Assembly: GCA_018396395.1 (NCBI GenBank)
Contig: JAGTQN010000001.1
Coordinates: 1 to 54,755 of the forward strand
Direction of reading: 5' to 3'
Length of the DNA: 54,755 nucleotides
From: Candidatus Bathyarchaeota archaeon
Lineage (GTDB): Archaea; Thermoproteota; CALKCG01; B24; JAGTQN01
Every line of letters begins with the position of its first letter. The first letter of the stretch is position 1. Positions 18,601 to 52,173 of the stretch are shown piece by piece. The position numbers were made by a program, and so were the translations under genes. A model generated the notes under the pieces. That model did no database searches and was not told the DNA's origin. It worked only from the letters and a program-made list of their open reading frames with translations.

Positions 18601-20156
18601 GCCTACTCGTAGCAGCTTGGATAGATCCTTTCAAAGGTATTCAGCCCATTTCGGAAGAATTATTAGAGGGAATTAGGCGCGTCTATAATGAGGGGGTATC
18701 GATAGCCCCTAGGGCATGGTTGTACAACATCCATATAGGGAATATGCCTGGCGATTTTAATGATCCATATGCGAGGGGACTTCTCAATATTTCTTCTGGA
18801 GACTCATGGCATACGGCTGCTGCAATCCTTGGAATTTCTGAAAATGAATTGAATATAGCTTACCAAGGAGATATGCAGAAGATAGAACAGATACTTCTGG
18901 ATGGGGTCTGGTTCCCATCAGAGGATGAATTATTTGTTCTCATAAGTAAAGACTATGCAGATTACCTAAACATCAGTATGTCTGACCCATCTTCAACCCT
19001 GATTAGAGTTAATGGTATTCAGATGAGAGTTTGTGGAATCTTTGATGCAAAACTCCTAGAAGGTATAAAGGAACTTGATGGGAGACCCATTATGCCCTTC
19101 GATCCCTCTGATTGGAGAAAGCGACAGCCCCTTCGAGCCCATGAGGTTCTCCTCATGCCATTTAACGCTGTAATGAGGCGCTTAGCTACTTGGGGGCCCT
19201 TTATTACCCAAGTGGCTTTGTATATCGAAAATCCTGTCAAAGTTAAGGAACTAGCAGAATCTATAACTCTCTACTATGACTTCGATGTCTATGCCTCTAC
19301 TGGAGAAAGAGTTTACTTGTTTGCTCATGGAGTCTCAAGGGAAGTAAGTGGACTAACTTTTATAATACTCCCCTCTATCATAGGAGTCCTTAGCCTTTTC
19401 AACATCATGTTAGGCAATGTAATAGAGAGGAGGAGGGAAATATCCACCTTCGCCTCTGTTGGTCTATCTCCCTTGCATGTCGGAAGTATATTCCTTACGG
19501 AGGCAGGAATATACGCTGTTTTAGGAGGGACCTTAGGATACCTCTTTGGCATCATAATCGCCTCGGGAGCGTATAGATTCTATGGAATAGCCGTGAATTA
19601 TTCTTCAATCATGGTGGTAGCCGTCGTACTTCTCTCCATGGGGTTAACGACCTCCTCATCCATCTATCCAATCTATAAATGCGCAAGGCTAGTAACACCT
19701 TCTCTTGAAAGAAAGTGGAAGGTTCCGACTAAGCCAAAAGGAGATACTTGGGAAATTCCCTTGCCCTTTGTTTCCAGCGAGGCTGAGGCAAGGGGGATAA
19801 TAGCATTTATGAAGGAATTTTATGAGGGACATATGATCAGAGATGAGTCGCCAGTCTTTTTCGCCCAGAATCTCTCCATAGAGGAGAGAGCTACGAATAA
19901 CATTACCGTTAAGTCTCTTATAGCGACCGTGGCTATAGAACCTTATCCGCGGGGGATATCCCAGATTGCTATCTTTAATGCATCTATAACTGAGGGTAGG
20001 GCGAGTTACACCTTATTCCTTAAAAGGCTCACAGGAGAACAATCGAGTTGGCAACACCTCAATAAATCCTTCATAAGTGAAGTCCGGAGGCAACTTCTCA
20101 TATGGCGAAGCCTCAGGGATCATGAGAAGAAACGGTATATGGAGGCTAAATTGTAA
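15684..20156 (+). CDS. Giant membrane protein: signal anchor, PA domain, M28-like (apparently inactive) ectodomain, FtsX/MacB-type permease module, unknown C-terminal domain
   Basis: N-terminal TM helix IVHSLIFLLTFVFLWSLVFL and PA-like GKLVYVGKGY..VEGNIVLMD..AAKLGAKAVVF. M28-like block NVIGFIYGK..LILTAYYDSYS..PGAQESLG..FVAFAGHNQALLGAREF. FtsX hallmarks are RKRRLRTTLTFTSILMIALALV, a large loop, and LFNIMLGNVIERRREISTFASVGLSPLHVGSIFLTEAGIYAVLGGTLGYLFG. The start may instead be the ATG at 15696. Confidence 0.8.
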   Translation: MGFRMFPARKPIVHSLIFLLTFVFLWSLVFLNRPIHASNSNIVEKDEIVEIVRNINISKIILHAKYFSSFESRYSGYPGSDAAAEYIRQYFESLGLVDVEFHEFNVTVPIDYGTSISLLGHDGREKRAFKAYTLEPNMVALSRRSSEGLTGKLVYVGKGYLEEMSGKDVEGNIVLMDFSGSKDNWINAAKLGAKAVVFIGEGDRYDAARKSLWIPLDFPRIFVPEPSGCMLKKAINETVRVLCDMRFEQRTAKNVIGFIYGKQMPEQSLILTAYYDSYSITPGFAPGAQESLGISTLLELARFFSEYSKRGRGPNRTIMFVAFAGHNQALLGAREFTELFLFERRWQSKVGLMDMTYYPIMINLDLATDNDWVVNLGAGDVCALGYGTRGPAFQAVRWIYDRFKDVYTPQIIDAWKTIYGRTFRIDLDPYYPGSRAPEPNHIVMDSEPYLAAGANGFSFYTAYSERKYYSTPFDTYERLMWNNLQPQIETIFSVIYMLQAEPQLKELSTEVTRIGGRLYGANYGKLFGRVVTFNPSINQYEGVSKALVAIQGPGLYRYILTTDEDGLFTVVGITAFGTNYGIYPFYLDENGTIEYAPDFGIYSFGNDVQITIWRGGIIGTQEYPQYFTVFKCGSVAFFDLLAPRTGFASSVFRIMDFNTHSTPAHYSFFPREASPIVVAFVEPGTRVEAIAFQADVPIPSAIILNSSRIRPQGNGYEVKYGRQLLVTNALLKNAEDIWLLNNERINTFLQFNVFEPAAAQLHDAAKSILDASWGAFENRSYGLAFTNAQRALGVETRAYARILSLYNETISSTMFFFALLVPFVFLAERLFLSWNGPRRLLGIIMIFIMALGMFALFHAGFHLGANMFIVLIGFVTMALTLPLVPILGGHAQSRILEWRRAVVGLHFAEISRTGAILLSLSYGVQQMRKRRLRTTLTFTSILMIALALVSMTSMSVHSITLQLPTGGEPTRVGLLVAAWIDPFKGIQPISEELLEGIRRVYNEGVSIAPRAWLYNIHIGNMPGDFNDPYARGLLNISSGDSWHTAAAILGISENELNIAYQGDMQKIEQILLDGVWFPSEDELFVLISKDYADYLNISMSDPSSTLIRVNGIQMRVCGIFDAKLLEGIKELDGRPIMPFDPSDWRKRQPLRAHEVLLMPFNAVMRRLATWGPFITQVALYIENPVKVKELAESITLYYDFDVYASTGERVYLFAHGVSREVSGLTFIILPSIIGVLSLFNIMLGNVIERRREISTFASVGLSPLHVGSIFLTEAGIYAVLGGTLGYLFGIIIASGAYRFYGIAVNYSSIMVVAVVLLSMGLTTSSSIYPIYKCARLVTPSLERKWKVPTKPKGDTWEIPLPFVSSEAEARGIIAFMKEFYEGHMIRDESPVFFAQNLSIEERATNNITVKSLIATVAIEPYPRGISQIAIFNASITEGRASYTLFLKRLTGEQSSWQHLNKSFISEVRRQLLIWRSLRDHEKKRYMEAKL

Positions 20157-30142: not shown

Positions 30143-32782
30143 TTAGAATTCAAGTAAGACCTCTGCATAACCGTGAAACGGCTCAATCCTAACTGTCTCG
30201 GTATTAGCATCGTAAACACCGCCTTTTACTTTGTTCGCCTTTCTGCCTTGTGGATGAGGCAGACGAAGTTCTAAGCATTTCGGCTTCCTGTCCGAGAGGC
30301 ATTTCACTTTCGATTCAATCCTGCATTGTTCCAATTTTGATTCTACCTTCAACGATACTTCTCCAAAATAGCTGGCAACTCTGTTTAGTTCTATAGATGT
30401 GCCGTTTTCCATCCAAGATCTGGGGATCCCTGGGAGCAGCTTAAGAGTTTGACCTTGCTCCATCCAGAGCATCCATCGCGTTTGCATAAGGAACCAGCCT
30501 TCTTCATGTGTTTTGTGGGAGCTTCCAACACCCGGATAATGTTCCCAGAAAGTGTAGGTCTCTCGGTCAGCTAGGCTTGCGAAACCATTATAATAAGCCT
30601 TAAGAAACGGCTTAATCTCCCCTCGCCGAAGATGAACCTGTGGGTGACAGCTATAATAAGGTTGGCTAAAAGCCACATTACGCATATACATCAACTCTGT
30701 ATAGTAGCTCACAAGGAAATCGGCGATTCGTTCACTCGGATCTAAGACTTCGTGAAAAATAAGGTGGAGTGGTCCAAGCAAAGAGTCTCTAGCTAAGAAA
30801 GTAAGGTGGGTAAACCATCTGCCTTTTTCCGCGTAAAGCGAGACGGGGCCGCGTGCTTCGGCCCAAGGTGGAGCAGTTGGGCACCATGTTCCGTCACTAA
30901 GCGGAACAACCGGTGAGTTTGCCACAGCCTCAAACAAAGCCTCACGAATATCCTTTTTCCAATCTTCAGCCTCTCTGGCAAGCCTCTCTGATTGAGCAGG
31001 ATCCACTTTAGAGAGCATCTCCGAAGCACGGCTTAAACCAAGATATGCGTATCCGTTCAGCATAAACTGGTGGTAGGGGTCTTGCGGATCGGCGACTTTT
31101 CCTTCGATCATGCCGTAGCCTTTACCGCGTAACTCCTCCCTCTTGTTACGGTTACGCCATTCTAAAAGACGCTCACAAGCCTTAAGCAGTTTCGGCTTGA
31201 TCTGTTGAACCCAGTTGTCGTCATGTGTGTAGCGGTAATGCTCACCCATAACCCATAATGCTGCTCCCGTTTCCAGCATGTATCCATCGAAGTTCTGGAT
31301 AAATCCGTCTTCATGTTGCTTATCAAGAAAATACGTCAAAGAACGCCTAGCCAGACTATGCCAACCCATGGAGTCCATGAACTGAATGATTGGTGAACTC
31401 TCTGAGCCGATCGGACAGTATACCCCAATGGTAGCCGCAACGGTGCCGAATGGTTCAAGACCATACGCAACGAGATCTAAATGAAGCAAGCCCGCCTGCA
31501 TCATCTCTTCAATCCGTTTTTCAGGTAGTTTCACCTTAGCAGCGGACTCCAGCTTCTCTTTCCAAAATTCGCGGCATTCGGCGTGAAGCATTGTAAAGTC
31601 TCGCTTTCTCAGTCGCTTAGCCCTTTCTCTGGAGATGGGACGATGGGGAAGAAAGAACTCGAATGAGGCTGTTTCCCCAGGTTTAAGCAGAACAGCTAAC
31701 TCCTCCTGAGGCATTGGTTTCCCGTTTAATTTTGAGATGCAAAAGACCTGTCCACTTTCAAAAACTCCGAATCCGTCCTTTCCATCATACGACCATCTCA
31801 AAGCCTTTTTTGAACTAGGAAAAACGTTTTTAAACCATGCATAGCGAGGTACATAAGCAGAATTCACCGCTTCGGTTCTAAAGCAGAGCACGGTCTCTTC
31901 TTCGCAGCTCATCTCTTCAGGCAGAAGCGATTGGAATTCTCGTTCTTGCTCTTTCGTGAAAATATGGCCGTATCCATAGCCGTCAGCAACCAAGAAGTGC
32001 GTGCCCCGCAGCGACTTAGTTGTAAGCTTGGTTGATTCAAGCGTAACAAATACAGTGGAGTTATAGATTACATCATCATCGACGAGTACTCCGTGTAGAA
32101 TCGGTAGCACACCTTCTTCCAGATGCCGAGACATCCTTTCGGCACAGCCTATTCCGCGGCCGATAAAAAAGTTGTATCGGACGGGGTTGTTGTCAGCCTC
32201 TGGAAGTGGAACTGGGTAGCCATGGAATCGTGGCTGAATCCAATCCCAAACTTCCTGTCCAATCCGAAAACTAAACTCGAAGATTCGAATGTCTCTACTA
32301 AGTCCCAGCCAAGTTGGGCAGTGGAGTTCTCGAGTATTCGCCGCAGCCGATGCGTAACTTTCTTCCGGCTCGCTTTCTATACGCTGAAGTTTCGTTTGTA
32401 GTCCGCGGCTACGAATCTCTTCAGCGATCTGCTCATAGGAACGTTCATCATCTGCCTCAGTCACAACTATCCCGTATTCTGGGATGATGATGGGATATTC
32501 CTTACTGACATCTCTGAGAAAGAAACTAAACGGATTGATAGCTGTGTGAACAGTAATTAATGTTGTCTCTGATCCCAAACTGCAACCAGACTCATCAACA
32601 GTAATCTCCAGCCTGCAAGATCCATGGAATGCGAAAGAGAATTCGTCATCTACGACTTCACCTTTACCCTTCTTAATGAGCACCTCCTTCAGTCTACCAT
32701 TAACTACTTTTATTCGGCCTGTTGGTTTGCCATTCTTCCATTCTATAGCTATGCTCCTGCCCATAATAGGCACTTCTCCCAT
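30143..32782 (-). CDS. Large cytoplasmic protein with an (alpha/alpha)6 six-hairpin glycosidase-like C-terminal half; family not recognised
   Basis: 879-aa uninterrupted ORF with no signal peptide. The segment LDKQHEDGFIQNFDGYMLETGAALWVMGEHYRYTHDDNWVQQIKPKLLKACERLLEWR has the periodic helix-hairpin character of GH15/GH63/GH78/GH95-type toroids. This is judged by eye only. Confidence 0.45.
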   Translation of the reverse strand: MGEVPIMGRSIAIEWKNGKPTGRIKVVNGRLKEVLIKKGKGEVVDDEFSFAFHGSCRLEITVDESGCSLGSETTLITVHTAINPFSFFLRDVSKEYPIIIPEYGIVVTEADDERSYEQIAEEIRSRGLQTKLQRIESEPEESYASAAANTRELHCPTWLGLSRDIRIFEFSFRIGQEVWDWIQPRFHGYPVPLPEADNNPVRYNFFIGRGIGCAERMSRHLEEGVLPILHGVLVDDDVIYNSTVFVTLESTKLTTKSLRGTHFLVADGYGYGHIFTKEQEREFQSLLPEEMSCEEETVLCFRTEAVNSAYVPRYAWFKNVFPSSKKALRWSYDGKDGFGVFESGQVFCISKLNGKPMPQEELAVLLKPGETASFEFFLPHRPISRERAKRLRKRDFTMLHAECREFWKEKLESAAKVKLPEKRIEEMMQAGLLHLDLVAYGLEPFGTVAATIGVYCPIGSESSPIIQFMDSMGWHSLARRSLTYFLDKQHEDGFIQNFDGYMLETGAALWVMGEHYRYTHDDNWVQQIKPKLLKACERLLEWRNRNKREELRGKGYGMIEGKVADPQDPYHQFMLNGYAYLGLSRASEMLSKVDPAQSERLAREAEDWKKDIREALFEAVANSPVVPLSDGTWCPTAPPWAEARGPVSLYAEKGRWFTHLTFLARDSLLGPLHLIFHEVLDPSERIADFLVSYYTELMYMRNVAFSQPYYSCHPQVHLRRGEIKPFLKAYYNGFASLADRETYTFWEHYPGVGSSHKTHEEGWFLMQTRWMLWMEQGQTLKLLPGIPRSWMENGTSIELNRVASYFGEVSLKVESKLEQCRIESKVKCLSDRKPKCLELRLPHPQGRKANKVKGGVYDANTETVRIEPFHGYAEVLLEF

Positions 32783-35031: not shown

Positions 35032-36282
35032 CTACCAAGGAGTCTCGTACCGGAACTCGGCTGGCTCTATCTTGCAGGGATAGGTTGGGCCTGGCTCTGA
35101 TAGGGCTATCATATACCTTTTCTCCCCAGGAACATATACGCCGCTAAAGAGAGTTACTAAGCGGTAGAAAGAAGGCATTCTGTCCAAGTGCTTGCAGATG
35201 GGCGATGGAAGCGTATGGTCCCTAAGGATCTTCCACATGGAATCTACTGTAAGCTCGAGTTTCTCGTCTTCCGTCAGCCTTCTGAGGTTAAGCCACCTTT
35301 GGTAATGAAATTTGTATTGCTCTGACGAATTGTCTAGGAGGTGCCGCGTTTCTGGATGGACAGCTACCCCATCAGTTGTGAAGATCGTATCGCCCTTTGG
35401 TCTGAGAATGCCTATATGCCTCCAAGACTTCTCTACTACGGCTGCATCTCCCTTGGCGTCAACAAGGGCTATGTTAGAACAACGACGTGTGAACATGTTG
35501 TATCGCTTAAACATCTCCAACGCCTCTCCCACGGTCGCACAGTACCGCATCACAAGATCCCCTACATCTACGGGAAAAAGTTCGTCGGGTTCTCCCTCCC
35601 CCGGATAATCGATACTGCTTCCCCACATGATGAGCCCCTTCTCATTCCCGATGGGGCCGGTACTGTAACCTAGGGATGGGGGTCTTAGGACGATCGTCGG
35701 GAAACAACCTTCGTAGCTCATCTTCGGTATCCAGTCAATCGAATCGTCTGTATTCCGCCCTATGATAGGGCCAATGTCTGTCTTCCTAAAGATGACGGTC
35801 GTACAGCCTGGAGCTACACAATCCAACCACTTTGCATGACCTTTCAGGAGCTGATAGACATCATACCAGAAACGGTAGAAAACTATGTCTTGAAAGGATA
35901 GATCCGCGCCCTCGGCCATACCCTTCATCTCATCCTGGATATACTCCTTCATACCCTTTAGCTCAGGGTATTTGTTTAGGTCGGGGACAGCATTGATCCT
36001 CTTCTCATAGGCTTGCTCAGCATGCCTATAAAGATCCTCTTGGGTCCATTTATCCAATGTCCGAATTGCCTCTAGTGGTAGCTTCCACATCTCTCTGGCA
36101 AACCTCCTCCAGTTTTCGATTTTTCCATAGAGGTCAAGGAAGCTTACAATAGACTCACGGCTAGATTTTCCATAGGTGAGGCCATTCTCATACCCTGACT
36201 CAGAAAGCCTTATGATCTTGATCTTCTTAGTAAGTGTGAACTCAAGTCTCACGTATTCGTTTTCTTGCATAATTTTTTTCAC
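35032..36282 (-). CDS. Peptidase C45-like Ntn hydrolase (acyl-CoA:6-APA acyltransferase family)
   Basis: The internal site APGCTTVIF..IIGRNTDD resembles the G/CTT autoprocessing site and the following N-x-D motif of C45 Ntn hydrolases. Confidence 0.55.
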   Translation of the reverse strand: MKKIMQENEYVRLEFTLTKKIKIIRLSESGYENGLTYGKSSRESIVSFLDLYGKIENWRRFAREMWKLPLEAIRTLDKWTQEDLYRHAEQAYEKRINAVPDLNKYPELKGMKEYIQDEMKGMAEGADLSFQDIVFYRFWYDVYQLLKGHAKWLDCVAPGCTTVIFRKTDIGPIIGRNTDDSIDWIPKMSYEGCFPTIVLRPPSLGYSTGPIGNEKGLIMWGSSIDYPGEGEPDELFPVDVGDLVMRYCATVGEALEMFKRYNMFTRRCSNIALVDAKGDAAVVEKSWRHIGILRPKGDTIFTTDGVAVHPETRHLLDNSSEQYKFHYQRWLNLRRLTEDEKLELTVDSMWKILRDHTLPSPICKHLDRMPSFYRLVTLFSGVYVPGEKRYMIALSEPGPTYPCKIEPAEFRYETPW

Positions 36283-36538: not shown

Positions 36539-39500
36539 ATGAATATACGTGCTTTTGTTGTGAAAGCCTCTGACGATGGATTTTTCAGAGTTGAGGAAGC
36601 CATTCGATCAATCGGAGGAAAAGATGCACGAGTGAAGGTGAGCCTGTTCAAAGGTATCAACTTTCCCCTAACCTATCCAATCCCTTCCCGAATCGATGAA
36701 ACTGTTCAGGGATATGTAGGTTTAGGAGAATACGATATCGTCTCCCTGCTGGACGTAGATCCGGGCGTCCTCAGTCCTAAGGAATCTTTAAACTTGGTCG
36801 CCTATGTTGAGAACGGCGGCGGCCTTCTAATCACAGGCGGCCGCCACGCCTTAGGTAACGCAATAGGCTCTTATGAGGCTTTGAAAACCATCCTTCCAGT
36901 TTTTTTGGAAAAGAAGGAAGATGAGGTTAAGGTTGATACCCTCCCTGAAGTCTCCAAGGAGCACCCCATCGTTTATGGAATTCCCCTAGACAGAATTGGG
37001 AGGGTGACGGTCGTTCAACCAGTGATGCCTAAGCCTGACGCCGTAGTCATCCTTAAGGCATCAGGTTACCCCCTCCTCACAGTCTGGGAGCATGGCAAAG
37101 GAAGGGTAGCTGTCCTGTCGACTTACCCCCTCTTCCCCCGCAAGGGAAGGATGCTCATGGAAAAGGAGCTTTTCTTCGCAACCGACTTCTACGATGACTT
37201 ATTGAGGCAGCTTCTCATGTGGCTATCGCGGCGAGACGATAATCTCCTAATTAAGGAATTCTCATGCTCTCCAAGTAGAATCTTCCTAGGGAATCGGATA
37301 GTTGCCAATGCTGTCCTTTCCAGCGAAAAGTCTTCAAAACTTCGGGTGAGGTTCTCCGTTGGGAAGGAAGGCGAACTCTTGGCAGAGGAAGAACGAAGCA
37401 TTATGATCGAAGGTCCAATGAAGCTATCCTTTTCCTATGCCACAGAAGCTCTGCCAAACCTTTCTGGCTTTTTGGAGGCGAAGCTCGAGGTTCTGGAAGA
37501 TGATGGGAAGACTTTAAACCATAGGGACTGGACTGTCGAAGCAAGGAACAGGACGAGGCTTAGTCTCGAGATCGTTTCAAGGAAAGCTGTTGTGGCGCCG
37601 GGTTCATCGCTACAATTAAGCCTTCAAGCAGTTTCGGATGAGGAGGCCCCACCCGCGGAGCTTGAGGCGAAAGTGAAGATCATCGATTTCAGAGGTAAGA
37701 TCGTGTATGAATTCCCTTCCACAAAGATCTCTCTGAGAGATGGTACCTATGGAAGGGCGTCCATTAGCTACGATGTGCCGAACCTAGCCAAGGGAAGGTA
37801 TGAGCTTATCTACGAGCTTATTTCCCACGAGAGATTGGTAGATACTGGTCGGAAGCCTTTTCTGATAGTCGATCCTTTGGATTATGAGGACTTCTATCCT
37901 ATCATCGGAGAAGCCTGGGCCTTCTTCGATGAGGGAATGATAAAAGAATGGATTGAGGATACCATGGCCCATGGCTTCAACACGGTTGCCTTCGGAGGCG
38001 ATGGGATAGGGGATTATCATTGGGAGAAGGAGTATGATTGGGATAGGCTCCAGAACTTCGCAGAAGCCTACTCCCAAGAAAAAGGTTTGGCAGTAGCCAT
38101 CAACTACAGCCTCCTCATCGACTGCCGTAGAGATAGGCCGCCCACGGTCTGCGTGAACAACCCTGACTTTGAAAAGGCGGAGAAGGATTTACTTCTCCGG
38201 CAATTGAATGTAGCAGCGAAAATCCCGAGACTTTACGCCGTTGAGACAGTGGATGAACCCCTTGTTTCGCCAGATTCCGTATGCTACTGCCAATTTTGCA
38301 AGGAGGGATTCCAGAGGAAGTATGGATTAGAAATGCCAATTATGAGTAGGATAAGGGATTACGATGTCGAAACCCGTCTGAAGCTGTACGAATGGCTCAG
38401 CGACTACTGGGCGAAGGGCTTCAGGACGATGTACGAGCTGAAGCGTCAAGCAGGCTTTAGGTTCAATCTTGCCCATACTTTCTGCCAACTCTCCTTCGGA
38501 ACCTTTTGCCCAGAATACTACTATAGAGACAGCTTCGCTTGGGCACCCTACTGCGATATCCTCGACTTCGACGTATATCCATACATGTATCCTATGTGGA
38601 GGGGCTCTGAAAGGCTTAGGTTCCATGCGCTTCATTACCATCTGAGTGCCCACAAGGCCCTCACAAGGTTCTACGGCAAACCTCTTGGATTCTTCGTAGA
38701 GACTACGGAGCGCAACTATCCTATGTATATTCCGCCTGTAAAGGCAAGCAGCGAAATTGCCTACACGGCCATTGCCCACGGTGTCAACTACCTGAAGACT
38801 TTCATAAACGTCCCGTTCACGGGTCCTCCTTCCAACAATGGTCCGAGTGAGGCAAGGTGGGATCAGTTTGGTGAGGAATTGAGGAAGATCAATGCCGTCA
38901 GCCCCCTCTTTACGAAGTGCAAGAAGACTAGGCCACGCTTCGCCATGCTTTTCGCCTTCTCAGACTGGCTACTCAACCATTATCATGCGCCCGGAATGGA
39001 GCGCGGCTGGCCAAAGCATATGGAGGACAGGCCCCTGAACAGGGTTTTTCCTTTCGAGTACACGCCTTGGAATATCTATGAAGCATGTTTCAGGGCCTTC
39101 GGAGAGCTGGAGGTCCTTCATGAAAAGCTCGTCGATGCGGGCGAGCTAAGGAATTATAAAGCTCTAGTCCTCTCCCGCATGAAATTTATACCTGACTCGG
39201 TGGCCGAAGCCATTAAGAGCTTCGTCTCTGAAGGTGGCATCCTCATCTTTGATGGAATACCATCCTTCAACCAGAGGGGAGAGGAGAGGGCATCCCTTGC
39301 TGAACTCGTAGGAGGGGAAGTCGTCGAGTTGAAGGAGGGCTTAGAGGCTAGGAAGGGGATTTATGGGAAGGGAAGGACCCTTTTCTTCAACTTCGATTTT
39401 GACGATGTCTACAGCTCTGCCGTCGAGAGAGGAGACGAGGACCTTATGCGATACCTTGAGAGGATTATCAGGGACTTCCTGTTCAGGGAAGGGCTGAGGC

Positions 39501-40063
39501 CGAATGTTCACTCCACGAACCCTGAGGTCGAGGCTGGCCTCTGGGAAGGTCGAAATACTCTAATCCTCGTTCTTGTCAACCACAGTAGCAAAAGGGAGGA
39601 GTCAAGCCTTACTATCTATAAGCCTGCATTCTTGCCAAACTACGCGTATGATGTTGCCAACCTTGAGGAGATATCCTTTAGGGTAGAGGATGGTGACATT
39701 AAGCTAAACGTAAGGCTAGAGGAAAGGGAGGGAAGGATCGTTGCCTTCTATCCAGAAAGGGTTTTTGGAAACAGAATAGAGGTGGAAACGATGCAGGTAA
39801 AAAGGGGTGAAGATTTATGCTATAGGATCATTGTTGAAGGCCAGAACTGCAATCCCGCGAAAGGACACCATGTTATAGAGGTGACCGTATCGGATCCGGA
39901 GGGAAGGTTCCTAGCACGCTATGGAGGGTTGCATTCCACAACGGACGGAGTATATGAGAAGCGAATACCATTGGCTATAAATGAGCTTGAAGGCATCTGG
40001 ACCATAACGGCCTACGAGAGGTATACGAGGCGAAGGAGTAGAGCTCAATTTCGCGTCGTCTAG
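36539..40063 (+). CDS. Multidomain GH42-like glycosidase homologue (N-terminal GATase1-like domain, Ig-like repeats, TIM-barrel, GH42-type trimerisation-like domain)
   Basis: N-terminal VAYVENGGGLLITGG is a GATase1-like/DUF1355-type motif. The central AHGFNTVAFGG ... AVETVDEPLVSPDSVCYCQFCKEGFQRKYG resembles the GH42 NE-plus-CxC-x2-C block. C-terminal NYKALVLSRMKFIPDSVAEAIKSFVSEGGILIFDG resembles the GH42 trimerisation domain. Confidence 0.55.
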   Translation: MNIRAFVVKASDDGFFRVEEAIRSIGGKDARVKVSLFKGINFPLTYPIPSRIDETVQGYVGLGEYDIVSLLDVDPGVLSPKESLNLVAYVENGGGLLITGGRHALGNAIGSYEALKTILPVFLEKKEDEVKVDTLPEVSKEHPIVYGIPLDRIGRVTVVQPVMPKPDAVVILKASGYPLLTVWEHGKGRVAVLSTYPLFPRKGRMLMEKELFFATDFYDDLLRQLLMWLSRRDDNLLIKEFSCSPSRIFLGNRIVANAVLSSEKSSKLRVRFSVGKEGELLAEEERSIMIEGPMKLSFSYATEALPNLSGFLEAKLEVLEDDGKTLNHRDWTVEARNRTRLSLEIVSRKAVVAPGSSLQLSLQAVSDEEAPPAELEAKVKIIDFRGKIVYEFPSTKISLRDGTYGRASISYDVPNLAKGRYELIYELISHERLVDTGRKPFLIVDPLDYEDFYPIIGEAWAFFDEGMIKEWIEDTMAHGFNTVAFGGDGIGDYHWEKEYDWDRLQNFAEAYSQEKGLAVAINYSLLIDCRRDRPPTVCVNNPDFEKAEKDLLLRQLNVAAKIPRLYAVETVDEPLVSPDSVCYCQFCKEGFQRKYGLEMPIMSRIRDYDVETRLKLYEWLSDYWAKGFRTMYELKRQAGFRFNLAHTFCQLSFGTFCPEYYYRDSFAWAPYCDILDFDVYPYMYPMWRGSERLRFHALHYHLSAHKALTRFYGKPLGFFVETTERNYPMYIPPVKASSEIAYTAIAHGVNYLKTFINVPFTGPPSNNGPSEARWDQFGEELRKINAVSPLFTKCKKTRPRFAMLFAFSDWLLNHYHAPGMERGWPKHMEDRPLNRVFPFEYTPWNIYEACFRAFGELEVLHEKLVDAGELRNYKALVLSRMKFIPDSVAEAIKSFVSEGGILIFDGIPSFNQRGEERASLAELVGGEVVELKEGLEARKGIYGKGRTLFFNFDFDDVYSSAVERGDEDLMRYLERIIRDFLFREGLRPNVHSTNPEVEAGLWEGRNTLILVLVNHSSKREESSLTIYKPAFLPNYAYDVANLEEISFRVEDGDIKLNVRLEEREGRIVAFYPERVFGNRIEVETMQVKRGEDLCYRIIVEGQNCNPAKGHHVIEVTVSDPEGRFLARYGGLHSTTDGVYEKRIPLAINELEGIWTITAYERYTRRRSRAQFRVV

Positions 40064-45835: not shown

Positions 45836-46324
45836 TCATAGGGCCCTTAGCTTCTTAACGAAGGTTTTTACGTCCTCCACATTTCCCTTAACCATAGAAG
45901 GTGGCAACCAGTTTTCATAGAAGTTTTGGTGCAACATCCCAGCCGATTGCCAGAGCCTTCTGAGTTCAGTATCTCCTGTCTCCTCCACCAGCTTGGCTAG
46001 GAACCCATGGAGCTCCCTATGGCTACGCAACCTTTCACCCCTTTTAGCAGCTACGGCTTTTAAGGCCTGGGACGCTGCACCCCAAAACTTCTCTGACGAT
46101 TGAACATAATTACCCCTTCGTAGAAGCTCTTCACCTTCAGTCAAGTATTTCTCTGAAAGTTTTGTATGCACCTCCCATATGACCTCGGGGTCATCGATTT
46201 CGAAATGGGATAATATGGCTTCGATCGCCAGATTCTCTAGGCTTACATCCAGCTCCCTAGATTTCTTTACTAGGCATTCCACGACCTTACTCGGAAGCTC
46301 TATTGTAACGCTCATCAACTCCAT
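45836..46324 (-). CDS. PaREP1-family (HEPN-like) protein with N-terminal ribbon-helix-helix-like segment
   Basis: The core is YLTEGEELLRRGNYVQSSEKFWGAASQALKAVAAKRGERLRSHRELHGF...AGMLHQNFYENWL. It fits the PaREP1 pattern (QASEK, SH, LH.NFYE). The N-terminal VTIELPSKVVECLVKKSRELDVSLENLAIEAILSHF looks CopG/RHH-like. Confidence 0.65.
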   Translation of the reverse strand: MELMSVTIELPSKVVECLVKKSRELDVSLENLAIEAILSHFEIDDPEVIWEVHTKLSEKYLTEGEELLRRGNYVQSSEKFWGAASQALKAVAAKRGERLRSHRELHGFLAKLVEETGDTELRRLWQSAGMLHQNFYENWLPPSMVKGNVEDVKTFVKKLRAL

Positions 46325-46787: not shown

Positions 46788-47971
46788 TTAGATTAGAAGG
46801 GCTATCGTCATTCCAATTCCGGCTATGAGGGTCAAAAGGGCGAAGGCTGGAGTGTAAGAGAGGAAGATATCATAAACAATTCCGATGACCAGTACCCCGA
46901 GGAAACCACCAACGTAGGCGAAACCGTCGATGAAGCTAGAAGCAGTTCCCAACTTCTTTTGGAAGAAAGATTGGAGAATAGGTGAAGTAGATGCTTCCAC
47001 CGAAGCCAAGAAATGCGAAGATCAGGGTAAACATCACCAAAACCATGTTTTCCTCTGCCGTAGAGGATAGGATCCACAGGGCCCAGGGCAGAAAGGGTGA
47101 AGGATATGGCTATAGCGAACTTGAACCTACTTTTGAATCCTCCTCCTGTCAACCAAGCTCCTATGAACATACTTCCAGCCCCTGTTAGGGTTGAAAGTCC
47201 TCCCAGAATCGAGCTTGCAATGGAGACATGTGTATTTTTTTTCTGTCAAATATGTTGGGAGCCATGCAAGTAAACTTCGGAAGATGCACATATAGCATGC
47301 GTAGGCAAGGGCTACCATCCATACGTTTCTGTTAAAAAGGATTAGACGAATTCTTTCCCTCATTACCAAAGAACCTTTTGACGAATCGATCCTATGGCAA
47401 TTTGATGGATCCTTTATAAAAACCAGAAAATCCCCGTTGTAAACAACAAAAGAAAGGATGGAAATAAGAACGAAGCACGCCAACTAAAATCCATCGCCAA
47501 ATAACCCGATAGGGCATATGCCACGGTAGGACCTAGTTTGCTGGAAGCAAAAGAAAGCCCATAGCAAATCCCATCGTTCCACTATCCTTCGAATAGGGAT
47601 CAGACACAAGGCGTGTTAGGGCCCCCAAACCATTCCCTGCCCCAGCCCGTTTAGAAACTGTAGCGCCAAACCGATCGAGAAACCTAGCAGAGGTGTAGTT
47701 AAAGCTGAGAGGGAAAAGGCTATGTTAGAAAGGGAGGAGATGATACCCCCAAGAATAACGACCCTCTTAGGACCTATGGTATCCCTAGAAGACCTGTGGG
47801 GAAGAGCGTGATGGCATAGGAAACCAGTTCTGCGGAGGCAAGGGCACCAACATCGCCATGGCTTCATCTGGTAGAGGGCCATCAATATCGGAAGGACGAG
47901 GTAAATTGTATCGGCACAAGTATAACGCCAAATACTCGATACCCAAGACTAGGGTTTTTCAACCTAATCAT
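46788..47971 (-). pseudogene. MFS transporter, multiply frameshifted
   Basis: MFS-like segments are spread over at least four frames or ORFs. Examples: GDVGALASAELVSYAITLFPTGLLG, IGPKRVVILGGIISSL..LQFLNGLGQGMVWGP, RNVWMVALAYACYMCIFRSLLAWLPTYLTEKKY, VGGFLGVLVIGIVYD. In-frame stops lie between them. Confidence 0.65.
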
Positions 47972-48048
47972 GAACGCCCTTCCTATCCCTTCTTTCCTCA
48001 AGTCCATTAGGAACCTTAAAGAGATGCCTAAGCCTAAAGCCTTGTGTT

Positions 48049-49506
48049 ATGTCCAAGGGCTTCAAGGCTTCCTATTCGGCTCGAATCCCTGCTTCAGATG
48101 TTACTTCCACCTCAAAATCCACCACATCCCCACGTTTTAAGGATGCCCTCACCCTCGCCATAGAAGCCCTAAGCCTCCTCGAGTTGAACAATTTAAGCGC
48201 CAGGGCAGCCCTCCGGGGGGCTACTGAGCAACTTGACATAGAGGACTATGAGGCCCAAAGGGCTGCCCACAGGTTGGTCTTCGAGACCCTCAAAAGGCTC
48301 AATTTCATAGATTTCATGATTAAAAATGCCTTGGACCCGGAGGTCTTCGATACCCTCCCCCTAGGCGTGAAGGCCTTTCTGAGGATATATGCCTACGAGG
48401 TCGTAATAAGGGGAAGGGGACTAAGGGGGGCCCTGGGCTATGTGAGGGCGGCCAGAGACATCCTTGGCTGGAGAACCCTAAATCCGGTTGAGGAAACCTT
48501 CGCCCGCCTTCTGGGCATGAGGCCCGAAGCCCTCATCCTCGCCTCCAAAGAACCTGAGAGAACGGCCCTTAGGACTTTCCACCCTCCCTGGTTCGTGGAA
48601 TATTGCGTAAGGGCCTTCGGAAGGGTTGAGGCCTTAAGGCTTCTTGAGTCTATAGGAAGGGGGGCGCCTTTTACCTTCCTAAGGCTTAACACACTTCGAG
48701 ATTCGGAGCCTCGTATCATCGAAGCCTTGGAGAGGGAGGGTATTAGGCTAAAGGCCTTTGAGGGAATTCGCCATCTTTATGTCTTGACTGGGAATCCCAA
48801 GCTTCCCCTTACGAGGATGAACGCTTATAGGGAAGGCCTCTTCGAAGAGCAAGACCTCCTCAGCGCTTACGCAGTAGAGGCCAGCGGAATAAAGAAAGGC
48901 TTCAAGGTTCTTGAGATAGGGACTAGGAGGCGTAGCCCTGGAGCCATGGCAAGCCACATGGCCCAACTTATGGAAAACGAAGGCCTCATCGTATCCTTAA
49001 GGGATTCTGGACGGGAAGCAAGGATCTGGAAGCTTACCATTGCCAGGATGGGAGTAAGGAACGCTGAGCTCATCCTTGCTAATGCCAATGCCGGCTTCGG
49101 AGCCGGGACTAAGGACTTTATTCCCTTAGACCTCGAGGCTGATCTGGTTTTCTTGGAACCTCCTTCCACTGAAACTGGAGCCTTCCATCAGGATCCATCC
49201 CTCAAGTGGAAAACGAAGCCCGAAGACATCCAACGCTTGGCGAGGCTTCAGGCTAACCTCCTCGAGTCGGCCTTGGGCTATGTAAGGCCTGGTGGGAGTC
49301 TTGTCTACCTAACCTCCAGCCTTACTATCGAGGAAAATGAGATGCAGATCGAAAGGCTCCTGAGGCTTCACAGCGAGTTTGAAGCCATTCCTTTGGAGCC
49401 AAGCCTGGGGCAGTCTGCTTTGAGGGGACTGAAGAACTGCAAAAGGTTTTTCCTCCATCGCCATGGTTGTGGAAGTGGCTTCATCGCTAAGCTGAGAAGG
49501 CTTTAA
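48049..49506 (+). CDS. NOL1/NOP2/Sun (RsmB/Trm4-like) family homologue, predicted catalytically inactive
   Basis: The overall layout is a NusB-like N-terminal domain, a PUA-less linker and a methyltransferase fold. Motif IV reads LEPPSTETGAF where DAPCSGTG is expected. Motif VI reads LVYLTSSLTIEENE where YSTCS is expected. Motif I reads VLEIGTRRRSPGAMAS where DLCAAPGGKT is expected. Confidence 0.8.
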   Translation: MSKGFKASYSARIPASDVTSTSKSTTSPRFKDALTLAIEALSLLELNNLSARAALRGATEQLDIEDYEAQRAAHRLVFETLKRLNFIDFMIKNALDPEVFDTLPLGVKAFLRIYAYEVVIRGRGLRGALGYVRAARDILGWRTLNPVEETFARLLGMRPEALILASKEPERTALRTFHPPWFVEYCVRAFGRVEALRLLESIGRGAPFTFLRLNTLRDSEPRIIEALEREGIRLKAFEGIRHLYVLTGNPKLPLTRMNAYREGLFEEQDLLSAYAVEASGIKKGFKVLEIGTRRRSPGAMASHMAQLMENEGLIVSLRDSGREARIWKLTIARMGVRNAELILANANAGFGAGTKDFIPLDLEADLVFLEPPSTETGAFHQDPSLKWKTKPEDIQRLARLQANLLESALGYVRPGGSLVYLTSSLTIEENEMQIERLLRLHSEFEAIPLEPSLGQSALRGLKNCKRFFLHRHGCGSGFIAKLRRL

Positions 49507-49593: not shown

Positions 49594-50472
49594 TCATCCT
49601 CTCTTCCTTCTTGCTCGCCTAAGCCTAACCAAGACAATGGGATAATGGGGAATTCTGCGAAGCATATCCCACGTTACTTTGGTCAAGCCCCTAGCTTTAA
49701 GTCTCTCAGCCATTTCCCAGACATCCCTTCCCGCTCCATGGCCCCTTAGCCTCTCGGCAAGGAAGCAGATTTCCAAAAGCCCATCTAAGGGAAGGGAAGG
49801 ACCTTCCATAGCAAAGGCTACGGCCACGGGTGTAGGTCTCGCCTTCAACTTCAGGGAGGCTCCTATCAGATAGGCGAAAAAACCTAGAGGCTTTATTCCC
49901 TTTATCGGATTTCTCACCGTTGTGAAGTAAAGGCTTCTCCAATGGAAGGTTCGATCGGTGTCCGATATGATAACCGTCGCATGTTTACCAGTTTCTCGAA
50001 GGATTATATCCCTTAAGCCTTCAGCTATCTTCTGGGCATTCCTAAGGGGTAGGGCCGCGTAAGCGTATGGCAGGTTTACGACGTCTATGCCACCCTCAGA
50101 GGCATGGCGTAGGGCATGGAGAAAACCCCCATGCCTCAGGATCGCCTCCTTATGATGGGATCCCTCTTGTAATGGATATGCCCTTAGCCTTAAGATCGTC
50201 GTGGGCTTGAGATGGCATAGGTAGCCTAAGAAATAGCCCCATCCAATCCGCATCCAAAACCTTGCCAGGAACTTAGCCATAAGGCTCGGCTTGTATTCGC
50301 TCTCATCGATAATGTTGCCAAGGGCTACGGAAAGGGCCTTTTGGGAAAGCACTATGAAATCCCCATCCCTTAGCCAAGGGCGGACAGCCTCGAGGATGAG
50401 GCTTTCATAATCGCTTCCCGGGAGCCATAGGGGGGTCTGAAGGGCCTTGGCGGAAAGCCTCAGAAGCCTCAA
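49594..50472 (-). CDS. CofE-like (F420-0:gamma-glutamyl ligase fold) protein, divergent
   Basis: DGDFIVLSQKALSVALGNIIDESEY, GGIDVVN and VIISDTDRTF loosely follow the CofE motifs GDxxVVSSKxVSKAEG, GIDASN and ITDTxGR. This is a weak by-eye match. Confidence 0.4.
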   Translation of the reverse strand: MRLLRLSAKALQTPLWLPGSDYESLILEAVRPWLRDGDFIVLSQKALSVALGNIIDESEYKPSLMAKFLARFWMRIGWGYFLGYLCHLKPTTILRLRAYPLQEGSHHKEAILRHGGFLHALRHASEGGIDVVNLPYAYAALPLRNAQKIAEGLRDIILRETGKHATVIISDTDRTFHWRSLYFTTVRNPIKGIKPLGFFAYLIGASLKLKARPTPVAVAFAMEGPSLPLDGLLEICFLAERLRGHGAGRDVWEMAERLKARGLTKVTWDMLRRIPHYPIVLVRLRRARRKRG

Positions 50473-50615: not shown

Positions 50616-50999
50616 TCACCTCGAATCTGAGGAATTGGAACTTCCCTCCGCCTTCCGGCCTTCATATTCGACGACCCAGGCACCTCTCCTCGAACGGGTT
50701 AAATCCTCGATACGCCGCCTCACTTGTTTTATGGAGGTCTCCAGCCCCTTAATCCTCTTCTCAACCTCTCCAAGCTCATTCTCAAGAGGTCCTATACGAT
50801 TGGTGAGGTTGAGCATGGATCTTTCGAGGCGCCCAGCCTCTAGATAATCCCTAGTGCTGTAAAACTTACTCCTAACCTCTTCGAGGTCTCGCTTGAGTTC
50901 CGCCAAGGCGGAGTTAAGCTCACCCCTTCGCCGTTGGGCTTCCTTGAGGGCTTCCTCGAGCTTTGCCTCCTCCTCCTTAAGCTCTTCGATGGAAGACAT
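50616..50999 (-). CDS. Coiled-coil hypothetical protein
   Basis: 127 aa, E/K/R/L-rich with heptad periodicity almost throughout. No family recognised. Confidence 0.5.
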   Translation of the reverse strand: MSSIEELKEEEAKLEEALKEAQRRRGELNSALAELKRDLEEVRSKFYSTRDYLEAGRLERSMLNLTNRIGPLENELGEVEKRIKGLETSIKQVRRRIEDLTRSRRGAWVVEYEGRKAEGSSNSSDSR

Positions 51000-51084: not shown

Positions 51085-52173
51085 TTGGATGTGGACCCTT
51101 TGAACGGACGCGAGCGTTTCAGGAGAATTATGGACTTCGAGAGGCCCGACCGGTTGCCCCTCTACGAGTGGCTTGGCTTCTGGAAGGATACCTTGGACCG
51201 ATGGTATGGGGAGGGGCTCCCTCCTGGAATGGCAGTCGAGGACTACTTCGACTTCGATAAGACGGAGATCCTTCCGATAGACTTTGGTCCTATACCAAGA
51301 TTTGTTCCGAGGACTTTGGAGGAAGATGATCGATACAAGATCGTCATAAACGAGAAGGGCATCATCGCGAAACACCTGAAAACTTCGACCTCCATGCCAA
51401 GCTTCCTAGCCTTTCCCGTTAAGTCCAGGGAAGACTTCCATAAAATCAAGGTGCGCTTCAACCCTAAGGATCCTAGGCGTTATCCAATAACTTGGAGCGA
51501 TGAGCTTATAGAGTACTATAAAGCCCTCGATCGTCCTTTAAGGCTTCGTTTCCCTGGCTTCTTCTGGCAGGCAAGGGACCTTATGGGCCTTCCCTATCTT
51601 TCCATAGCCTTCTTTAGGGAAAAGAGGCTTCTCCATGAATTCTTCGATTTTTGGGCAGACTTCATCATCGAGACGAGTGAGGAAGCCCTATCTGTCGTAA
51701 GACCCGATTATGTGGACTTCGCCGAGGACATGTCCTATAAGAATGGCCCCCACATCTCGCCAAGGTTCTTCGAGGACTTCATCCAACCATCCTATTGCAA
51801 AGTTACATCCTTCCTCCGTAGCAAGGGCATCGATGTCATCGCCGTGGATACGGATGGGGACCCATCTCTTCTCCTTCCTAGCCTTATCGAAGCCGGAGTG
51901 AACTGCCTGATCCCCCTTGAGGTGGCCGCCGGTATGGATGTCGGAAGGCTAAGAAAAGCCTATGGAAGAAAGCTTCGCTTCATAGGAGGCATCGATAAGC
52001 GTGCCCTGGCCTTAGGAGGGACGCATCTAGAAGCTGAGGTAAGGAGGAGGTTCCAAGAGGCAAAGGGAGGGGGCTATATCCCCTCAGTAGATCATAGTGT
52101 TCCAGTGGACGTTTCCTTTCAGAACTACTGCCGATATGTGGAGCTGAGAAGGGAACTCATGCATGACCTATGA
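51085..52173 (+). CDS. Uroporphyrinogen decarboxylase (URO-D)/MtaA-like family protein
   Basis: ERFRRIMDFERPDRLPLYEW and the later TIM-barrel segments (DFAEDMSYKNGPHISP, IAVDTDGD, GGIDK) resemble URO-D-family methyltransferase/decarboxylase homologues. TTG start. Confidence 0.6.
   Translation: MDVDPLNGRERFRRIMDFERPDRLPLYEWLGFWKDTLDRWYGEGLPPGMAVEDYFDFDKTEILPIDFGPIPRFVPRTLEEDDRYKIVINEKGIIAKHLKTSTSMPSFLAFPVKSREDFHKIKVRFNPKDPRRYPITWSDELIEYYKALDRPLRLRFPGFFWQARDLMGLPYLSIAFFREKRLLHEFFDFWADFIIETSEEALSVVRPDYVDFAEDMSYKNGPHISPRFFEDFIQPSYCKVTSFLRSKGIDVIAVDTDGDPSLLLPSLIEAGVNCLIPLEVAAGMDVGRLRKAYGRKLRFIGGIDKRALALGGTHLEAEVRRRFQEAKGGGYIPSVDHSVPVDVSFQNYCRYVELRRELMHDL

Follow-up and report, generated by a model that had tools for sequence, protein, structure and literature searches.

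A gene of a Candidatus Bathyarchaeota archaeon, found near the end of the 54,755-nucleotide stretch of DNA analysed here (contig JAGTQN010000001.1, hereafter the window), encodes a member of the RsmB/Fmu family of RNA 5-methylcytosine (m5C) methyltransferases in which both catalytic cysteines and the motifs for binding of S-adenosylmethionine (SAM) are altered. The gene is likely, though far from certainly, a catalytically dead descendant of an RsmB/Fmu enzyme of the PH0851 type, retained for non-catalytic binding of RNA or of a pre-ribosome. Judging from its sequence, the protein should be able neither to bind SAM nor to methylate. It probably binds RNA, likely ribosomal RNA (rRNA), without modifying it.

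Family membership, fold and domain architecture

The open reading frame (ORF) matched the Pfam family PF01189 (Methyltr_RsmB-F) with E = 3e-29 and a score of 102.6 bits, the cutoff being 27, and weaker matches were obtained with RsmF-B_ferredox and NusB. The PF01189 score is about 60 bits lower than that of the canonical protein P0012 (~166 bits). The score of the window protein also lies far below every NCBIfam cutoff for RsmB/RsmF equivalogs, with 134.9 vs 319 bits for NF011494 and 113.8 vs 269 bits for TIGR00563. Generic SAM-methyltransferase models of Pfam were matched by canonical Bathyarchaeia members and unmatched by the clade of five sequences to which the window protein belongs.

When PDB sequences were searched with phmmer, residues 36-482 aligned with Pyrococcus horikoshii PH0851 (2yxl, E = 2e-34) and residues 180-485 with PH1374 (1ixk). 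The AlphaFold2 model, computed from a 59-sequence alignment, reached a predicted local distance difference test score (pLDDT) of 91.5 and a predicted template modelling (TM) score of 0.88, and predicted disorder was limited to residues 1-27 and a short clade-specific loop. The best Foldseek matches were PH0851 (2yxl, TM 0.84) and Escherichia coli Fmu/RsmB (1sqf, TM 0.86), followed by Nop2 in pre-60S particles. The complete RsmB/Fmu architecture is present, consisting of a NusB-like N-terminal domain, which aligns with the N-domains of 2yxl and 1sqf, a ferredoxin-like domain and a Rossmann methyltransferase domain (Table 1).

The N-terminal extension is absent from the canonical relatives. It begins with MSKGF in all clade members, varies from ~15 to ~43 residues in length and has pLDDT values below 50; the MSKGF sequence on its flexible tether may be a short linear interaction motif. 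The extension starts at position 1784 in locus L001, 902 in L002, 8257 in L003 and about 5860 in L089. The public gene call of P0003 begins too far downstream, the full ORF starting at L003:8257. An insertion of the GFGAGTKDF type in the loop after motif III was seen in the window protein and L001 only, and this loop is predicted to be disordered (pLDDT < 50 at residues 352-356).

Loss of the catalytic and SAM-binding motifs

The motif positions were read from HMMER alignments and from MAFFT alignments with 22, 58 and about 165 relatives. At motif I, the canonical DVCAAPGAKT aligns with EIGTRRRSPGAMA, which carries a three-residue RRR insertion together with the changes D289E, C291G, A293R, K300M and T301A, and only the P-G dipeptide is kept. 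At motif II, the canonical S(V/I)DYS aligns with SLRDS. The acidic residue D318, conserved at 90% or more among 71 canonical archaeal homologues, is replaced by Arg in all five clade members. The adjacent D319 is present only in the window protein and L001 and is Ala in the other members; since it is not conserved in the clade, it does not represent a register-shifted motif II acid.

At motif IV, LDAPCTSSG or LDPPCTSTG aligns with LEPPSTETG, with Ser373 and Glu370 in 5/5 members. At motif VI, YTTCS or YSTCS aligns with YLTSS. Residue 423 is Ser in the window protein, L001 and L002 and Pro in L003 and L089, which shows that Ser423 is not a conserved substitute nucleophile. The position of the motif III acid is occupied by N, D or E across the clade, and this variability, together with that of residue 423, argues against any residual chemistry. 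No cysteine has been gained, as the three of the protein (C186, C464 and C473) occur in canonical relatives too. The canonical PC...TC pattern was found in about 150 of the 168 homologous loci fetched, and the loss of the motifs is therefore far beyond chance.

In sum, the motif VI Cys, the motif IV Cys and Asp, the motif I loop and the motif II acid of an active RNA m5C methyltransferase are all missing. Relatives are automatically annotated as '16S rRNA (cytosine967-C5)-methyltransferase', 'SAM-dependent RNA methyltransferase' or 'RsmB/NOP family class I SAM-dependent RNA methyltransferase'. Since all the tested features of active m5C enzymes and of RsmB equivalogs failed, a methyltransferase annotation is unsuited to the window protein, and for its clade it is almost certainly wrong.

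An RNA-modifying enzyme that is still active through non-canonical residues, another cofactor, a different nucleophile or a rebuilt pocket is very improbable. The methyltransferase domain and its former motifs are strongly constrained, and motif I still has its P-G, motif IV its PP and the region of motif VI its T422/S424 and EENE, as would suit an enzyme. However, both cysteines are gone and none was gained, residue 423 is Ser or Pro within the clade, the motif II acid has become Arg, the motif III acid is variable, the motif I insertion comes without K/T, and the Pfam score lies well under that of canonical relatives. Moreover, the change of the motif VI Cys to Ser or Ala abolishes activity in RsmB, Nop2 and Trm4 (PMC2836557).

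These results bear out most of the initial annotation, made from the sequence alone, which had described an intact 485-residue ORF at 48049-49506 with RsmB/Trm4-type homology over its full length. The coordinates proved exact, with an ATG start, and the PF01189, phmmer and Foldseek matches extend the homology to sequence and fold. The Cys-to-Ser changes at motifs IV and VI and the loss of the motif II acid as SLR were likewise reproduced by the alignments, which place Ser373, Ser423 and Arg318 at these positions; a rigorous alignment with Cys at motifs IV and VI, named there as contrary evidence, was not obtained. The view that motif I is replaced has to be modified: the motif is disrupted, but not by substitutions alone, given the RRR insertion and the P-G dipeptide kept.

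Conservation of the scaffold and purifying selection

The changes are concentrated in the former active site. Of the 77 positions that show a conservation of 90% or more in the 71 canonical homologues, the whole clade retains 53, and another 20 differ in each of its five members. The windows that cover the SAM and catalytic motifs hold 12 of the 20 changed positions vs 15 of the 53 kept ones (Fisher p = 0.016). The changed set takes in D318R, D370E, C373S, S421L and C423S/P besides the five motif I changes given above. Six replacement residues (E289, R318, E323, E370, S373 and L421) are common to 5/5 members.

The rest of the scaffold is preserved. Signatures of the N-terminal helical domain (E79, N85, D88, L111, R112 and R136) and invariants of the ferredoxin-like domain (P179, W181, V183, R212 and N214) are retained, as are FHPxWFV, RLNTL, Q268/D269, P371/P372, K386/W387, GGxLVY, T422/S424 and EENE. 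The PxxKW and FIAKL motifs are likewise kept, as in PH0851 and RsmB. With its catalytic and cofactor residues gone and its fold retained, the protein has the character of a pseudoenzyme. The net charge gave no clear signal when dead and canonical proteins were compared.

The closest database relatives of the window protein are Bathyarchaeia proteins. Four sequences, 72-89% identical to it, carry every substitution (P0001, P0002, P0003/L003 and L089, the third and fourth with Pro at residue 423); the source of P0001 is the metagenome-assembled genome GCA_038870285.1. The other close relatives, with 34-46% identity, fall into one Bathyarchaeia orthologue group with the clade, and most of them are canonical. 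A metagenome scan added a single further clade member, L089. No member of the degenerate clade was among the matches listed in a scan of genome contigs, whose search pattern was biased against variants with N, Y, F or P. An exhaustive search with HMMER, which covered 1.84 billion cluster representatives and 15 billion proteins, placed the clade in one 50%-identity cluster, which indicates a narrow lineage.

Selection on the gene was evaluated from the five sequences by the Nei-Gojobori method. The ratio of nonsynonymous to synonymous substitution rates (dN/dS) was 0.12-0.18 at dS 0.25-1.04, and the convergent neighbour, an F420-ligase-like gene used as control, gave identical values. By region, dN/dS was 0.12-0.22 for the NusB-like domain, 0.12-0.20 for the ferredoxin-like domain and lowest, 0.10-0.13, for the methyltransferase fold. 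Near-neutral values (0.2-1.0) were limited to the S/T/P-rich N-terminal extension. At the 69 positions of the former motifs dN/dS was 0.07-0.18, showing that the remodelled ex-active site is itself constrained. Root-to-tip distances revealed a modest acceleration (0.82 vs 0.76).

A direct control for real decay is available in the window. Immediately upstream, an MFS_1 transporter gene is split into several short ORFs and differs by about 13 indel events, mostly frameshifting, from its intact 396-residue orthologue in L001, the DNA being 89% identical. This gene appears to be a genuine pseudogene adjoining the intact RsmB-like gene and, being broken at the same divergence, it serves as an internal control. 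That the RsmB-like gene might itself be recently inactivated with its ORF still open, or be an artefact of assembly or sequencing, would fit a genome that holds decaying genes and the narrowness of the clade. This explanation is effectively refuted, because the same substitutions and intact ORFs recur, at dS up to about 1.0, in five sequences that come from different samples and were assembled independently, dN/dS equals that of a functional neighbour, and no indel within the ORF shifts the reading frame in the clade, against the frameshifts accumulated by the transporter gene at dS about 0.25. The further proposal of the initial annotation, a conserved pseudoenzyme and not a decaying gene, is accordingly upheld by dN/dS, in-frame indels and a confident fold. 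Orthologues sharing the substitutions do exist, two of them with Pro in place of the second Ser, and purifying selection on the gene is as strong as on its ordinary neighbour.

The constraint on the ex-active site also bears on a different explanation, namely that the remodelled pocket has been neofunctionalised and binds something new, not simply the ancestral RNA site. Candidates would be m5C-modified or other RNA (as a 'reader'), a small ligand, or a partner methyltransferase that is scaffolded or activated, much as the inactive METTL14 activates METTL3. The low dN/dS of the former motifs, the replacement residues common to all five members and the gain of the MSKGF N-terminus with its flexible linker, a possible interaction motif, are in line with such a module. 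Against it, no partner gene is linked at any of the five loci, and the signatures of the ancestral RNA-binding domains are retained, which is explained most simply if the old RNA target was kept. We regard this alternative as rather unlikely.

Probable inactivation at the canonical locus

In canonical members the genes are arranged as PolB(-)/RsmB(+)/arginase(-), and two MoeA genes frequently come next (L005, L008), and the canonical P0039/L008 adjoins PolB. The nucleophile-less P0005, P0025 and P0037 sit at this same PolB locus. P0073/L109, an independent and fully degenerate lineage (motif I ISADGMAKT, motif IV NPPSS, motif VI YTTPS), is also found there, with arginase-MoeA-MoeA neighbours. 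Within the window's clade, the divergent upstream neighbour in L002 is the N-terminus of PolB, while the window and L001 have the MFS gene at the upstream position, and L003 and L089 have other genes. The position of L002 and of the Cys-less relatives indicates that a positional orthologue was inactivated in place, with later local rearrangement, and the gene is best read as such an orthologue of the canonical enzyme.

Alternatively, the gene could be an ancient inactive paralogue, a subfunctionalised duplicate that exists beside a canonical PH0851-type enzyme. Archaea often have several NSUN-type genes, six in the case of Thermococcus kodakarensis (PMC11344067), and in the window and L001 the gene no longer adjoins PolB. 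This is nevertheless improbable in view of the PolB-divergent position of L002 and of the location of P0005, P0025, P0037 and P0073 at the canonical PolB/arginase/MoeA locus. In addition, tblastn with six diverse family members found no second RsmB/NSUN gene in the 55-kb window, and the tree nests the window's clade within a single Bathyarchaeia orthologue group.

Recurrent cysteine loss in the Bathyarchaeia family

The loss of catalytic cysteines is not restricted to the window's clade. Both were present in 120 of 142 full-length cluster representatives; 17 had lost only that of motif VI (replaced by N, S, Y or F), five had lost both, and none had lost only that of motif IV. The corresponding numbers among 138 diverse 50%-identity representatives nearest the query, with the window excluded, were 128, three, seven and none; this set takes in the strongly degenerate P0148, P0154, P0157, P0162 and P0170. 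Overall, the motif VI Cys was absent from 22/142 and 10/138 representatives, so that roughly 8-15% of the retrieved Bathyarchaeia family members are without the nucleophile, fractions that are biased upward because the queries were dead proteins.

Neighbour-joining trees, built with the motif columns removed and unresolved at their deep nodes, contained four Cys-less groups: the window's clade with P0005, P0122 and P0146 (bootstrap 82%), a group of seven clusters (91%), P0104 with P0032, P0031 and P0011 (100%), and P0023 with P0025 (100%). The last two have canonical sisters, as L097 groups with L096 at 99-100% and L007 with L025 at 78-90%, which points to a minimum of three or four losses that occurred independently.

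Cysteine loss always begins with motif VI, and the motif IV Cys never disappears alone. This agrees with the known biochemistry, in which the motif VI Cys acts as nucleophile. Yeast Nop2 tolerates the loss of that residue, whereas mutants of motif IV only trap covalent enzyme-RNA adducts and are lethal or toxic (PMC2836557; PMC9561284).

Some members have N, S, Y or F at motif VI with the SAM motifs and the motif IV Cys intact (P0104, P0032, P0031, P0011, P0023, P0025, P0030, P0037 and P0117; loci L007, L094, L095, L097 and L172), and some of these have a Cys two residues upstream (YCTNS). A conserved SAM site without the nucleophile could possibly reflect SAM-dependent RNA binding, a Dnmt-like single-Cys mechanism or a recent loss. 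More divergent degenerate clusters were also observed (P0148, P0154, P0157, P0162, P0170, P0146, P0151, P0173 and P0126), in which motifs I and IV are almost unrecognisable and EENE is retained. Seven of these group at 91% bootstrap. P0126 (L170) lies outside the canonical gene context.

As a tentative proposal, which we hold to be possible but doubtful, Bathyarchaeia may harbour an old and diversified radiation of RsmB-derived pseudo-methyltransferases, comprising at least 10 50%-identity clusters in several supported groups, which replace the active orthologue at its own locus. If so, the selected core function of the archaeal RsmB/PH0851-type protein would be non-catalytic, that of a chaperone of RNA or ribosome assembly, and m5C would be repeatedly dispensable. 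The order of loss would then confirm, from natural history, both the two-cysteine mechanism and the toxicity of trapped adducts, and intermediates that keep the SAM site and the PC-Cys might be SAM-sensing RNA binders or Dnmt-like single-cysteine enzymes.

Proposed function

For the gene of the window, the favoured reading of a dead RsmB/Fmu descendant would imply that the protein was kept for that part of the ancestral task which needs no catalysis, the recognition and binding of a specific RNA site. The NusB-like domain, the ferredoxin-like domain and the remodelled cleft of the former active site, which is enriched in Arg, would all take part in this binding. The RRR insertion and D318R, which make the former cofactor pocket rich in Arg, could fill that pocket or add contacts to phosphates. 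By analogy with bacterial RsmB, the site would most probably lie in small-subunit rRNA or a pre-ribosomal particle, where the protein may act stoichiometrically as an RNA chaperone, RNA-folding factor, placeholder or assembly factor. A plausible path would start with the loss of the motif VI nucleophile, a harmless step repeated in the family, continue with relaxation and with the loss of both the Cys of motif IV and the ability to bind SAM, and end with a new constraint on the remodelled pocket.

Several points weigh against this reading. The predicted loss of SAM binding is deduced from motif positions, the RNA-binding or chaperone role is suggested by knowledge of the family, and the putative rRNA target is taken from bacterial RsmB and not from the substrate of PH0851-type enzymes. 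The clade comprises five sequences in one 50%-identity cluster, a narrow lineage, and the trees are neighbour-joining trees with unresolved deep nodes. The gene neighbourhood gave no functional hint either, the neighbours being unrelated and the gene apparently monocistronic.

Promoter-like element and neighbouring genes

The coordinates of the gene, its domains and former motifs, and other features of the window are collected in Table 1.

Table 1. Features of the RsmB-like gene and of its surroundings in the window
Feature	Positions	Strand	Residues	Remarks
RsmB/Fmu-type pseudo-methyltransferase	48049-49506	+	1-485	Complete ORF, ATG start, 485 residues
N-terminal extension	48049-48135	+	1-29	Clade-specific; MSKGF, then variable S/T/P-rich low-complexity linker
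NusB-like helical N-terminal domain	48136-48579	+	30-177	Putative RNA-binding; weak Pfam NusB match, all-helical in the model
Ferredoxin-like linker domain	48580-48834	+	178-262	Pfam PF22458
Class-I (Rossmann) methyltransferase-fold domain	48835-49503	+	263-485	PF01189; all catalytic and SAM motifs altered
Former motif I	48907-48954	+	287-302	VLEIGTRRRSPGAMAS; canonical VLDVCAA---PGAKTT
RRR insertion in former motif I	48925-48933	+	293-295	
Former motif II	48988-49011	+	314-321	IVSLRDSG; acidic SAM-ribose ligand to Arg318
GFGAGTKDF-type insertion	49093-49119		349-357	Window and L001 only
Former motif IV	49147-49179	+	367-377	VFLEPPSTETG; PC-Cys to Ser373, Asp to Glu370
Former motif VI	49300-49341	+	418-431	LVYLTSSLTIEENE; nucleophile TC-Cys to Ser423; T422, S424 and EENE retained
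Promoter-like element	48012-48023	+		AACCTTAAAGAG; TATA/BRE-like, 12 nt, 26-37 nt upstream of ATG
Large ORF	15684-20156	+		1490 residues
Large ORF	30143-32782	-		879 residues
Large ORF	35032-36282	-		416 residues
Large ORF	36539-40063	+		1174 residues
PaREP1/PaREP8-family gene	45836-46324	-		Pfam E = 2e-27
MFS_1 transporter gene	46791-47958	-		Split into several short ORFs
F420-0:gamma-glutamyl ligase-like gene	49594-50472	-		Weak match, 61 bits
Coiled-coil protein	50616-50999	-		127 residues
URO-D-like gene	51085-52173	+		

The element AACCTTAAAGAG upstream of the gene is identical at 4/5 clade loci, L003 having AACATTAAAGAG with one substitution, and the core TTAAAGAG is invariant at 5/5. 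In L002 the block is retained despite divergence elsewhere in the spacer. Its sequence is consistent with a TATA-like promoter, and its position presumably suits the archaeal TATA box of a leaderless or short-leader mRNA.

Downstream, the F420-ligase-like and coiled-coil genes were found in L001, L002, L003 and L089, and the URO-D-like gene was seen in L001 and L002. No functional link of this conserved block to the dead RsmB gene was evident. Neither transfer RNA (tRNA) genes (ARAGORN) nor any Rfam family above its gathering threshold were detected in the whole window, so there is no linked RNA gene to suggest a target. PaREP1/PaREP8 is an archaeal repeat-protein family typical of Thermoproteota, which fits the Bathyarchaeia/TACK assignment. 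The 879-residue and 416-residue ORFs had no Pfam match at E <= 1e-3. The former was considered as PolB on account of its length and rejected, in the absence of a Pfam match and with an empty tblastn search with PolB in the window; arginase and MoeA queries found nothing there either.

Comparison with known systems

The window protein shares its three-domain architecture with PH0851 (2yxl) and with E. coli RsmB/Fmu (1sqf/1sqg), the 16S rRNA m5C967 methyltransferase, at identities of 25% and 19%, respectively, in the Foldseek alignments. It differs from both by having other residues in place of the two catalytic Cys, the acid of motif II, Lys/Thr of motif I and Asp of motif IV, by the RRR insertion and by the extra disordered N-terminal extension. 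The canonical Bathyarchaeia RsmB/NOP proteins (P0012, P0039) are closer, with 40-46% identity, the same length and domains, and a PolB-adjacent position common to at least one clade member. They keep every motif, whereas the window's clade does not. No paper on natural Cys-less RsmB/NSUN pseudoenzymes or on m5C enzymes of Bathyarchaeota was found in the literature searched, the coverage of which was incomplete.

That an enzyme of rRNA modification can become a non-catalytic factor is already an established concept. Trypanosome mitoribosomes keep naturally deactivated rRNA-modifying enzymes as assembly factors, among them the Trypanosoma brucei MRM and RPUSD4, homologues of an rRNA methyltransferase and a pseudouridine synthase (PUS) that have a disrupted SAM motif or an occluded site and play structural roles (PMC7957421). 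These differ from the window protein in their SPOUT or PUS fold and their eukaryotic organelle, and their association with the ribosome was seen by cryo-electron microscopy, while for the window protein it is proposed.

A functional precedent within the same enzyme family is given by Nop2/NSUN1 of yeast, human and worm, whose essential role in ribosome biogenesis does not depend on catalysis (PMC9561284) and whose motif VI Cys mutants rescue (PMC9561284; PMC2836557). This role sets the example for non-catalytic RNA binding or assembly. Nop2 is naturally active and is without the NusB-like N-domain arrangement of RsmB, whereas inactivation in the window lineage is natural, complete (extending to the SAM site) and fixed. 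In laboratory work on Nop2/NSUN1, Dim1, Bud23 and others, it has long been argued that the enzymes that modify rRNA owe their importance less to their marks than to their part in assembly. The archaeal RsmB lineage would be a natural run of that experiment, in which catalysis and cofactor binding were dropped and the protein remained strongly constrained. The finding is of value mainly for the graded series seen across the family and for an order of loss that makes mechanistic sense, rather than for the single gene. From canonical through nucleophile-less to fully dead members, this series could separate an RNA-binding or chaperone function from methylation, and could help to identify the target of the PH0851-type archaeal enzymes.

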